NCBI GenBank assembly: GCA_965203325.1
Contig: OZ241875.1
Span: 1,984,001-2,048,000 of the forward strand
DNA: 64,000 bases
Direction of reading: 5' to 3'
Source of the DNA: a bacterium
GTDB lineage: Bacteria; UBA8248
Shown: piece by piece, positions 6,421 to 11,825 of the stretch
Position numbering within the stretch: position 1 is the first letter of the stretch
How the letters are laid out: each line of letters starts with the position of its first letter
The notes under the pieces: model-generated
Told to the model about the DNA's origin: nothing
The model's database searches: none
Seen by the model: the letters and a program-made list of their open reading frames with translations, nothing else
Position numbers and translations under genes: made by a program

Positions 6421-8844
6421 CTACCAGCGCTTCGAACCCTTGAGCAGGAGGCCGCCTTCGGGTCTCCCGCCGCCGGCCTGTTCGGTGAGGCTCGCCTCGA
6501 GGCTCACCTCCGTGGCCGCCCCGGGCTTCCAGCGCGCGCCCGCGCGCCAGGTCTCCGCGTTCCCCGAGACCGCCACGCCCGTATAGGGCGTCAGCAGCCC
6601 CCGGGGGGCGTCCAGGCCCCAGGCCGCCTCGGCCTCGAAGCCCGCGGCGCCCGGCTCGAACGCACCGGCAGGCGCCAGGCCCGCCGCCTGCGACCAGAGC
6701 CGCTCCGCACCGCCCGCGGCCGCGCCCCACGAGGAGCCCGCCCGCAGCGTGAGGCCCCGTCCCCCGGAGCCGGGAGCGTACGCCACCGAGGCGCTCACGC
6801 CCCATTCCTCATAACCGCCGGCGCCGTGGGAGAGCAGGCCGCGCGCGCGCACCTCCGTCGTCAGAGGCCCCGAGGCCCAGCGGACAGAGCCGCCGGCCTC
6901 CACCCCGCCGCCCGTCTCCGCGTCGCCCGAATCGTTCCGGAACCCTATCTCCAGCGAGGGCGTCAGCACCGCATCGCCGAACCTGAGCGAGCGCGAACCC
7001 TCCAGCACGAGGCGCACGCGGCTCGTCTGCGCCTCGGTCTCCGCCAGGCCCGCCGCAGCGTCCGAGCGCGTGTTCGTCACCAGGACGTCCGCGCGGAGCG
7101 CGAGCTCGAACCCGCCCGCCTCGCGCGCGGGCAGAACGACCCCGCGCGCCCCGGCCGCCGCCATGCCCATCGCCACGTCGGCCTCCACCGGGGACGACCC
7201 CCCGGGCGTGAGCGTCATCTCCCCCTGCCCGTGGCCCACAGCGCCCCAGAGCGAGAACGTCCCGCTCACACGGTAGCGCGCGTAGGGGTAGACACCCGTA
7301 AGCGTGCTCTCCACCTCGCCCGCGCAGCCCGCCTCGCACGCGCCGCCCGCCTTGTACTTGCCGTCGCCCGAACTCCGCGAGAGCGCCACGCCCACCAGCC
7401 AGCGCGCCCGCTCGTAGTCGAAGCCCACGGTCGCCGTCGTCACGTCGCCCTCGAGGGAAAGATCGCCCTCGGCGCCCTCGAACGAGGAGCGCGCGCCCCG
7501 GCCCCAAAGCGACCAGCGCGAGCCGGCGTCCACCTTCTCCGCCGAGGCCATGTGAAACGAACTCGCGAGCAAGAGGTCGGACATCGCGAGCTCGCGCACC
7601 GAAGGCGCCGGCGCCTCCCCGCCGCGCCCGAGCCGGACCTCCCTCTCCTTAAGCAGGGCCTCGGCGAGGCGCGACTCGATGGCCTCGCGCTCCGCCCCGC
7701 CTGAGAGGCTGTGGCCGCCCAGCACGACGCCCGCGGCGGCGCCGCCCGACAGGCGTCCGTCAATCGCCTCGGCGACGTGGCCCGCCGCCGCGCGCCCGAA
7801 GCGCGCGAGCCACATCCTTTGCAGCGGGTCGTCGTTCCGGATCACCCCCTTCGCCTGGCGGTGAATGCCCCGCAGATACGCCCCCCGGGGGTTCGACAGC
7901 TTGAGCTTGAACGTCTCCTTCCCCTCGTCGACCGCGTCGTCGAGCAGCGGGACGCTCACCGTCTTCGCCGTCTCGCCCGGCGCGAAGGTCAGCGTGCCCG
8001 ACGTGGCCGTGTAGTCCGCCCCCGCCGCCGCCGTGCCGTCCTCGGTCGCGTAGTCCACCGAGACCGCGTGCGCCGCGGCGCGGTTGAGCGTCACCGCAAA
8101 GTCCAGAGATGCGTCCTTGCCTTCCTTCCCCCGCGCGTCCGCGACCCGGATCCGCACCGGGCCGCCTATGGTCATACTCGACGTGTTCGTCAGCGCCCGT
8201 CCGTCGGCCGTGCACACCGCGCCCGCCGCGCCGCAGGCGCGCCCGCCCGCAAGCGTCACCGTCATGTCCTTCCACGACTTCGGCGCGACGCGCACCCGCC
8301 ACAGGCCGGACGCCACCTTGCGCACGTCCTTCACCCTGCCGCCCGTCACGGCGAAAGAGGCCGCAGCCGGGGCGCTCGCGGTCTCGCCCAGCGCCTCGCT
8401 GAAGCGCACCTCCAGCGCGAACGCCGCCTTGCCGTCATGCTCTTCCGGCGCTCCCTCGAACGCCGCCGTCAGCGGCTCCGACGCCTGCTGCTGCGCCACC
8501 TGCTGCCGCTCCGGCTCCGGCGCCGCCTCGCGCGTCACCGTCACCGTATAGGTGCGCGTGTAGCGCGCGTCCGGCGCCGTCACCACCACCACGATGGTGT
8601 TCTCGCCCACGACCAGCGCCACCGGCGTCGACGGGTCGCCGCCGTTCACCGTCACCCGCGCATTCGGGTTCTCGGGGCTCGCGTTCACCGTGACCTCGGT
8701 CACGTCGTGGGCCACCGTCGCGCTGTAGGTCGCGCGGTCCGGGTCGAACGCACCGTCCAGGCTCACCTGCCCGCTCGCGGCGGCGCCCGTCGCCATGCAC
8801 AACGCCGCCGACAGCAGCACCGCAATCCGTACCATCTTCTTCAT
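6421..8844 (-). CDS. Autotransporter-type outer-membrane protein with N-terminally incomplete cadherin-like beta-sandwich, Calx-beta domain and C-terminal beta-barrel
   Basis: Signal peptide; Calx-beta motif VDYATEDGTAAAGADYTATSGTLTFAPGET..LDDAVDEGKETF; amphipathic strands ending in W. Confidence 0.85.
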   Translation of the reverse strand: MKKMVRIAVLLSAALCMATGAAASGQVSLDGAFDPDRATYSATVAHDVTEVTVNASPENPNARVTVNGGDPSTPVALVVGENTIVVVVTAPDARYTRTYTVTVTREAAPEPERQQVAQQQASEPLTAAFEGAPEEHDGKAAFALEVRFSEALGETASAPAAASFAVTGGRVKDVRKVASGLWRVRVAPKSWKDMTVTLAGGRACGAAGAVCTADGRALTNTSSMTIGGPVRIRVADARGKEGKDASLDFAVTLNRAAAHAVSVDYATEDGTAAAGADYTATSGTLTFAPGETAKTVSVPLLDDAVDEGKETFKLKLSNPRGAYLRGIHRQAKGVIRNDDPLQRMWLARFGRAAAGHVAEAIDGRLSGGAAAGVVLGGHSLSGGAEREAIESRLAEALLKEREVRLGRGGEAPAPSVRELAMSDLLLASSFHMASAEKVDAGSRWSLWGRGARSSFEGAEGDLSLEGDVTTATVGFDYERARWLVGVALSRSSGDGKYKAGGACEAGCAGEVESTLTGVYPYARYRVSGTFSLWGAVGHGQGEMTLTPGGSSPVEADVAMGMAAAGARGVVLPAREAGGFELALRADVLVTNTRSDAAAGLAETEAQTSRVRLVLEGSRSLRFGDAVLTPSLEIGFRNDSGDAETGGGVEAGGSVRWASGPLTTEVRARGLLSHGAGGYEEWGVSASVAYAPGSGGRGLTLRAGSSWGAAAGGAERLWSQAAGLAPAGAFEPGAAGFEAEAAWGLDAPRGLLTPYTGVAVSGNAETWRAGARWKPGAATEVSLEASLTEQAGGGRPEGGLLLKGSKRW

Positions 8845-11825: not shown

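Follow-up and report, generated by a model that had tools for sequence, protein, structure and literature searches.

We examined a two-gene locus on the minus strand of a 64,000-nucleotide (nt) stretch of bacterial DNA (GTDB lineage Bacteria; UBA8248; GenBank assembly GCA_965203325.1, contig OZ241875.1, positions 1,984,001 to 2,048,000), referred to here as the window. The genome that carries it, G000, is 4.39 Mb in one contig and 95% complete. Gene 1 encodes a passenger protein of 988 amino acids (aa), and gene 2 encodes an 807-aa protein with a putative C-terminal outer-membrane beta-barrel, which we call the anchor. A cadherin-like domain is divided between the two genes, with a putative first strand at the end of gene 1 and the remainder at the start of gene 2. 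The features of the locus are listed below in window positions, with the evidence for each in brackets.

8859-11825, minus strand: gene 1, barrel-less passenger, 988 aa (open reading frame, ORF)
10014-10685, minus strand: gene 1, pair of intact cadherin-like repeats that keep the first strand, NANLSGLT... (PF12733)
8862-8903, minus strand: gene 1, C-terminal tail ANARLRALDLNTGN, 14 residues (975-988), proposed donor strand (conservation, motif match, predicted contacts)
8845-8861, minus strand: TAA stop of gene 1 (8859-8861) and 14-nt spacer with a G6 Shine-Dalgarno-like run
6421-8844, minus strand: gene 2, barrel-bearing anchor, 807 aa (ORF)
8773-8844, minus strand: gene 2, signal peptide, residues 1-24 (sequence inspection)
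8530-8766, minus strand: gene 2, truncated cadherin-like beta-sandwich without its first strand, residues 27-105 (PF12733, custom hidden Markov model (HMM), predicted contacts)
8155-8487, minus strand: gene 2, "stalk" domain without a Pfam family, residues 120-230 (homolog conservation, and omega, the ratio of nonsynonymous to synonymous substitution rates)
7882-8112, minus strand: gene 2, Calx-beta domain, residues 245-321 (Pfam PF03160, 9.3e-21)
6421-7827, minus strand: gene 2, helical linker and putative C-terminal outer-membrane beta-barrel, residues 340-807, ending KGSKRW (paralog alignment)

Gene 1 carries a choice-of-anchor R domain at residues 83-244 (NCBIfam NF041539, 9.2e-26), the two intact cadherin-like repeats at residues 381-491 and 500-604, and two Calx-like domains before the tail. 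A body common to all tail-bearing passengers (TMTVGDGGKWKGFRA..., then the Calx-like domains) spans residues 608-925, or window positions 9050-10003. This conserved body matched no Pfam family and holds many invariant residues. The N-terminus of gene 1 (11590-11825) has a hydrophobic stretch, MKNIARISMLLAAAFCSA, and a second one, RRFRLLPVLALLLAAFSPFAAAPAAAA, about 50 residues on; among relatives of gene 1 the first is variable and the second is common to them, so gene 1 may start further in or carry a long signal extension.

Gene 2 starts MKKMVRIAVLLSAALCMATGAAASGQVSLDGAFDPDRATYSATV, and by inspection its N-terminus (MKKMVRIAVLLSAALCMATGAAASGQ) has the basic n-region, hydrophobic core, and AxA-type c-region of a Sec signal peptide (MKKMVR, then IAVLLSAALCMA, then TGAAAS). 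The same region reads MK..RIA.LLSAALCMA across 12 homologs. After the signal peptide, the protein continues VSLDGAFDPDRATYSATV...YTVTVTR. The stalk is kept in 118 of the 120 listed gene-2 homologs.

Organization of the gene junction

Gene 1 ends ...ITIADGANARLRALDLNTGN (...STVGITIADGANARLRALDLNTGN), followed by the TAA at 8859-8861. A 14-nt spacer (8845-8858, GGGGGGCATGTCCG) then leads to the ATG of gene 2 at 8842-8844. The stop, the gap, the ribosome-binding site, and the signal peptide are therefore all present, as a sequence-only reading of this DNA had described them when it reported a split domain here. In Pfam, PF12733 covers residues 31-106 of gene 2 but only profile positions 8-89 of 89. 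The gene-2 domain is thus not a complete PF12733 domain, whose profile runs from the first strand, and the missing motif sits at the end of gene 1.

We trained a custom HMM on 99 domains of this protein family that are internal and intact; its consensus starts SDATLSALT.... Gene 2 aligns to it from position 8, with the signal-peptide residues lying over the loop. We then scanned the last 22 residues of gene 1 with a position-specific score matrix made from the first 12 columns of the same 99 domains. The best placement was residues 975-986 (ANARLRALDLNT), which match the N/D, A, L, G/A, and L columns. Random peptides scored as well at a frequency of 3.5e-4 among 200,000, or about 0.004 when the 11 placements are allowed for. 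Taken alone, the sequence evidence for the tail is modest. The decisive support for the tail as more than a chance match is the recurrence of the junction.

Recurrence of the junction in two unrelated genomes

A 171-nt junction is present three times in G000, at 100, 95, and 95% identity, and the stop, the G-run, and the ATG are kept in all three copies. The frames of the three anchors are open over 817-818 aa, and the three passengers (P0121, P0122, and P0123) are intact. In a six-frame scan of G000, exactly three long ORFs close with the tail motif, and in every case the signal peptide and the truncated domain come next; the same scan found no orphan tail.

Five further junctions of this kind lie in G051, an unrelated genome that was reached via locus L011 and is outside the 51 genomes of the window's phylum. 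Tail, signal peptide, and truncated domain occur together at all eight loci that were read as DNA (three plus five). These loci differ in their stop (TAA or TAG), in the length of the spacer (12, 13, or 14 nt), and in the frame offset (15, 16, or 17 nt); at L019, both genes share one frame. These varying stops, spacers, and frames exclude a conserved frameshift or read-through fusion, and any fused product would place the signal peptide inside the domain. The clean stop, ribosome-binding site, and signal peptide had earlier been taken to argue against simple frameshift decay, and the same cut at eight of eight loci in differing frames bears this out.

One of the G051 loci, L021, is a diverged "type B." Its passenger is a 377-aa protein without a recognised domain that ends ANERLRQLELEIGQ, and its anchor starts MKNFARISMLLAAAFCIAAG...RKVSLDQPFDDERQSYTATV. 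We also observed that the G-run of the spacer (8845-8858 and the equivalents at L016-L022) varies from 4 to 7 G, with a shift in the spacing to the start codon. This variation might modulate translation of the anchor.

The module has a patchy distribution. It is present in 1 of 51 genomes of the window's phylum (G000 itself) and, in the group of G051, in G051 alone among 25 genomes of its order and 401 sampled from its class. Between G000 and G051 the module is about 90% identical and sits on different barrels. The synonymous divergence (dS) between the two is 0.05-0.23 from the truncated domain to the Calx-beta domain, versus 0.79 in the barrel, which indicates that the module recombined onto different barrels and moved between unrelated genomes. 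Distribution and identity together point to horizontal spread and recombination. A metagenome scan with a 19-nt junction word gave four matches, all of them unrelated chance ones.

Tails, heads, and fused relatives among the homologs

The conserved C-terminal region is covered by 17 gene-1 homologs, of which 15 finish in [AG]ANARLRAL[DG]L(N[TSA]|S)GN, a tail of 13-14 residues. Two more distant homologs end N[PA]RLRDL[GE]MNTGN. The heads that precede this tail vary, and include two cadherin-like repeats, fibronectin type III (fn3) plus cadherin-like domains, three or four fn3 domains, Calx-beta domains, and no recognised domain at all. Such variety on one tail fits the idea of "swappable" heads.

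On the anchor side, 29 of the 120 listed gene-2 homologs have a cadherin-like domain adjoining the stalk. Thirteen of these have the signal peptide followed by the truncated domain, 14 have an internal domain (13 of which reach HMM position 6 or lower), and two are cut at the N-terminus. The homologs are accordingly not always single fused genes, a pattern that would have spoken against the sequence-only reading, and the split point that it proposed to look for elsewhere does recur in other genomes and with different passengers, as seen at the G051 loci and in the heads of the homologs. The other listed gene-2 homologs carry different passengers on the same stalk, Calx-beta domain, and barrel. 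In fused relatives, an intact cadherin-like domain occupies the same place, directly after a Calx-like domain (for example, P0007, ...VEVTITDDGAQQQQASSDATLSALTG...), and the gene-1 body is also found within the fused, barrel-bearing relatives P0149, P0150, and P0167.

Six homolog pairs (P0124/P0015, P0126/P0019, P0127/P0021, P0128/P0017, P0132/P0023, and P0134/P0016) agree in the length of their longest contig, which suggests that gene 1 and gene 2 are adjacent elsewhere; adjacency outside G000 was looked at directly at L011 only. We also searched for a fused, near-identical form. The motif FDPDRxTYSATV was found beyond residue 60 in none of 360 collected proteins, and a search for a longer fused form was swamped by giant multi-Calx proteins. 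A representative-library search with residues 1-118 returned 7538 matches at E<=0.001. The best 150 of these were mostly multi-repeat proteins, and among them only P0001 and P0501 match from residue 1.

Selection and reading-frame conservation

Gene 2 is under purifying selection, as its omega values show (truncated domain, 0.27-0.62; stalk, 0.16-0.49; Calx-beta domain, 0.31-0.42; barrel, 0.33-0.78). In gene 1, omega is 0.99-1.34 over the conserved C-terminal 381 codons and 1.3-3.5 in the last Calx-like domain. Over the 14 tail codons it is 0-0.39. Synonymous changes do occur inside the tail (CGG/CGC, GCG/GCC, TTG/CTC, and GGA/GGG). A comparison of type A with type B shows synonymous differences at four tail codons, one of them a leucine codon (TTG to CTC); N976, R978, L979, R980, L982, and L984 are kept, and the positions that change are 977, 981, 983, and 985-986. 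This pattern of substitution points to constraint at the protein level.

The reading frames bear on a different explanation of the split, namely, that an insertion recently broke a fused autotransporter and that both halves are now decaying. The frameshifted copies P0133, P0135, L019, and L022 are what such decay would leave behind, as is an omega near 1 in gene 1. Against it, both frames are intact at all three G000 loci, and 15 of the 17 gene-1 homologs, which differ by as much as about 30% at the protein level, are unbroken as far as the tail. A frame of 988 codons would stay open under random substitution with a probability of 0.0018 at 10% divergence; the corresponding value for 381 codons at 10.4%, the divergence that was observed, is 0.077, so that a single pair by itself is weak evidence. 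In addition, gene 2 is under the purifying selection described above, and the stop, G-run, start codon, and signal peptide are kept despite variation in the spacer. Gene 1 looks like a fast-evolving, exposed protein with a frozen tail, unlike decay, and we regard recent pseudogenisation as highly improbable. The split is conserved and probably functional.

Predicted complex of the tail and the truncated domain

We predicted the complex of anchor residues 24-112 (12-row alignment) with gene-1 residues 866-988 (15 rows used). Three runs gave values of the interface score ipSAE of 0.68, 0.74, and 0.76, with a median of 0.74, versus 0.00 for the best of three controls. Of 157 solved complexes, 116 scored at least as high as 0.74, as did 2 of 215 mismatched pairs; this comparison is rough since our own alignments were used. 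The runs agree on at least 94% of contacts, with a partner pLDDT (predicted local distance difference test) of at least 81. The complex of tail and N-terminal anchor domain envisaged by the sequence-only reading is thus predicted, with clean controls.

The gene-1 side of the predicted interface consists of residues 972 and 974-987. The pairs with the lowest error are 56-981, 57-979, 55-982, 52-984, and 51-985 (gene 2-gene 1), which place gene-1 residues 979-985 antiparallel to gene-2 residues 58-51. More predicted contacts are made at anchor residues 24-36, 84-92, and 95-103. The anchor domain itself is modeled with a pLDDT of 86-87 in the presence of its true partner and 57-58 with unrelated partners. 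The models support binding, with the tail as an edge strand on the truncated domain, although the score bears on the modeled pair and not on its behavior in cells. A sequence search of the PDB with an intact repeat gave nothing significant (best E 0.27), so there is no close solved relative by sequence, and the same search with the anchor returned Calx-beta domains only.

Proposed docking of the passenger on the anchor

On the basis of the conserved split, the diverse passengers, and the pattern of selection, we propose that this operon encodes a split autotransporter adhesin in which the tail docks the passenger on the anchor, a reading that we hold with moderate confidence and favor somewhat over its denial. 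Gene 2 would be the anchor, in which a Sec signal peptide and a cadherin-like sandwich minus its first strand are followed by the stalk, the Calx-beta domain, and, after a helical linker, a barrel of the autotransporter type. The barrel-less passenger of gene 1 would be descended from autotransporter passengers, with the missing strand as its last 14 residues. The two proteins would first be exported separately by Sec. The tail is then predicted to insert as an edge strand into the incomplete anchor domain, with its leucines packing into the core, and a variable head would thereby be tethered non-covalently to a conserved anchor. Since the tail is universal and the head variable, heads would be exchangeable by recombination and could dock on any anchor in the cell. 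An upstream invertible promoter, described below, probably makes the operon phase-variable.

Several findings weigh against docking. The tail alone gives no significant match in a full HMM search. Two of the 17 gene-1 homologs (P0133 and P0135) are frameshifted just before the tail, and two of the five G051 anchors, at L019 and L022, have open frames of only 357 and 292 aa, which may be either decay of spare copies or assembly error. The omega of gene 1 fits relaxed constraint as well as diversifying selection. The sequence-only reading had proposed that the passenger donates a strand to the anchor; the predicted complex, the recurrence of the junction, and the unfused homologs speak for this, with binding as a prediction to which likeness of fold may contribute, since the two halves of a single domain tend to do well in such predictions for that reason. 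Single-sequence AlphaFold2 modeled the anchor domain alone at low confidence (pLDDT 59), and with a 12-row alignment the full-length anchor reached a mean pLDDT of 53, with the barrel mostly below 60. No secretin and no usher (PF00577) were found in G000, at its 95% completeness. Finally, tail DNA lies untranslated in leaders, and part of the tail's conservation may accordingly reflect common descent or a function of the nucleotides. The leader of gene 1 is the example in the window:

11826-11880, minus strand: gene-1 leader, a decayed type B junction (a ..RLRQLE.. remnant, a G-run, then MKNIARISMLLAAAFCSA)

As an observation on L022, its anchor leaves frame inside the truncated domain.

One alternative is a model without docking, in which the two genes are independent neighbors left by an old break of a fused autotransporter, and the tail is kept by shared leader or translation-initiation DNA or by recent spread. 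The untranslated tail DNA upstream of gene 1 and in six paralogous leaders, the low dS of the junction region (about 0.03-0.15), the omega of about 1 in gene 1, and the lack of a known outer-membrane route (no secretin, no usher) for its product would all be expected under it. The behavior of the tail itself argues the other way. Its codons change synonymously while type A and type B retain the same leucines and arginines, and the leader copies, seven in G000 counting that of gene 1, have decayed as expected without constraint at the protein level, with CCC where the Leu984 codon stood and the stop lost. RNA folding of the junction gave z = -0.44 and -0.05, which is no structure signal, and a small hairpin in type A is not kept in type B. 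No promoter-like site was found at the junction, and the stretch between gene 1 and gene 2 showed neither an internal promoter nor a terminator. The complex prediction is strong and specific, and tail and truncated domain occur together at eight of eight loci. On balance, we consider independence of the two genes rather unlikely, though it is the most serious competitor to docking of the passenger.

Because the leader is a decayed type B junction, the standard 5' end of the G000 autotransporter family seems itself to be derived from a split junction.

The barrel and the route across the outer membrane

About the last 465 residues of gene 2 (340-807) align over their full length (E=2e-93) with the C-terminus of a G000 paralog, whose barrel passes the PF03797 cut-off (37.3 bits versus 26). 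None of 12 anchor-family members matched PF03797 directly at E<=1, and 3 of the 12 matched PF13505. The low-confidence full-length model shows helices at 339-366 and 383-404, followed by many strands. Foldseek on this weak model returned Calx and cadherin-like folds only, with no barrel match.

Gene 1 has no barrel. Since both proteins have putative Sec-type signal peptides, both would first reach the periplasm, and a surface location of the gene-1 product is inferred. Passenger and barrel are separate genes in one operon, and the predicted interaction is one of strand addition, both of which recall two-partner secretion. The anchor could then be a dedicated exporter, with a periplasmic truncated domain that, like a POTRA domain, binds the tail by beta-augmentation, and a barrel that exports the product of gene 1. 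That no other outer-membrane route was found also favors this idea. However, on the paralog alignment the barrel region is homologous to classical autotransporter beta-domains and not to Omp85/TpsB, and neither a POTRA nor a ShlB family was found in any of the 12 anchor-family members. No two-partner secretion (TPS) domain appears among the Pfam matches of gene 1, gene 2, or their homologs, and in fused relatives the equivalent domain belongs to the secreted passenger. We judge such an exporter to be very unlikely. A genome-wide search for ShlB was uninformative, as its controls gave no match.

The anchor may also export the passenger in another manner. The tail would pair with the N-terminal strands of the anchor in the periplasm before these have folded, the pair would exit via the barrel/BAM pore as the last part of the anchor's own passenger, and gene 1 would follow with its C-terminus first, driven by folding on the outside. 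We offer this route as a doubtful suggestion. The only other candidate export route found in G000 is a Slam-like gene (PF04575, E 6.2e-27) at G000:C1:1776843-1777712, which is 207 kb away and outside the window.

Upstream region and genomic neighborhood

The region upstream of gene 1 contains a further feature:

11925-12137: pair of 25-nt inverted repeats, 92% complementary, that enclose a 163-nt segment containing a sigma-70-like promoter

The promoter is strong and TG-extended (TTGACA, 16 nt, TAAATT; 12081-12108, plus strand) and points away from gene 1, which is apparently the OFF state. The same 163-nt segment lies inverted at two paralogous G000 loci, and it is probably an invertible promoter placed ahead of the operon of gene 1 and gene 2. 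At the matching position, L011 has an intact 335-aa tyrosine recombinase. The window has there a 122-aa ORF (12184-12552), and on this comparison the recombinase seems to have been lost or truncated at the window locus. This ORF is not significantly like the intact L011 integrase (E 3.9); it gave a sub-threshold integrase SAM-like hint and adjoins an HTH_17 gene (12596-13315).

At least seven paralogous autotransporter loci in G000 share the leader, the barrel, the upstream region with the HTH gene, and a downstream 1.9-kb block. In the window, this block lies at 4001-5906. It is 71% GC, has about eight copies in G000 at 87-92% identity, and its ORFs gave only sub-threshold zinc-ribbon hints.

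Comparison with known systems

The pair resembles several known systems and coincides with none of them. In type Va autotransporters, such as AIDA-I and Ag43, there is a C-terminal barrel and a head that is held non-covalently, as proposed here. However, in type Va, head and barrel cross as one polypeptide and are cut later, whereas here head and barrel come from two genes with a signal peptide apiece and would be joined through a split beta-sandwich domain. As passenger and barrel are separate polypeptides, the pair is not type Va. In two-partner secretion (type Vb), such as FhaB/FhaC, the passenger and the barrel are on separate, adjacent genes, as here. The present pair differs in that it has no N-terminal TPS domain and no POTRA/Omp85 barrel, that recognition would be by a C-terminal strand, and that the passenger gene comes first. 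Without TPS, POTRA, or Omp85 elements, it is not type Vb.

Donor-strand exchange in chaperone-usher pili also completes an incomplete Ig-like fold with a strand from another chain. There the last strand is missing and the donor is N-terminal, whereas here the first strand is missing, the proposed donor is C-terminal, and no polymer is formed. With no usher, and with the first rather than the last strand missing, the pair is not a chaperone-usher system. The type V pili of Bacteroidota (FimA/Mfa1) have the same polarity as proposed here, in that a C-terminal strand replaces an absent N-terminal one. In those pili, however, a protease removes the strand and lipoprotein-derived subunits form a filament; here the removal is at the level of the gene, and head and anchor would form a one-to-one pair. 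SpyTag/SpyCatcher, in which a short peptide completes a beta-sandwich and attaches cargo, is similar to the predicted pair, but it is engineered, and the present pair is natural with no indication of an isopeptide bond. In full-text literature searches, judged by titles and abstract openings, neither a split autotransporter nor a passenger with strand complementation turned up.

If docking is true, the locus would amount to a natural peptide-tag/catcher pair of autotransporter origin. One 14-residue tail would then serve variable heads of several kinds (cadherin-like, fibronectin-III-like, and others) and fix them to a conserved anchor that is probably phase-variable, such that adhesins could diversify and swap while the secretion machinery stays as it is. 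The small docking module would also be usable for surface display. For type V secretion, the pair poses the question of how a passenger without a covalent link to a barrel reaches the surface. Were the anchor also to export its passenger, type V secretion would gain a "hand-over" form, in which interchangeable passengers encoded in trans leave by a shared barrel.

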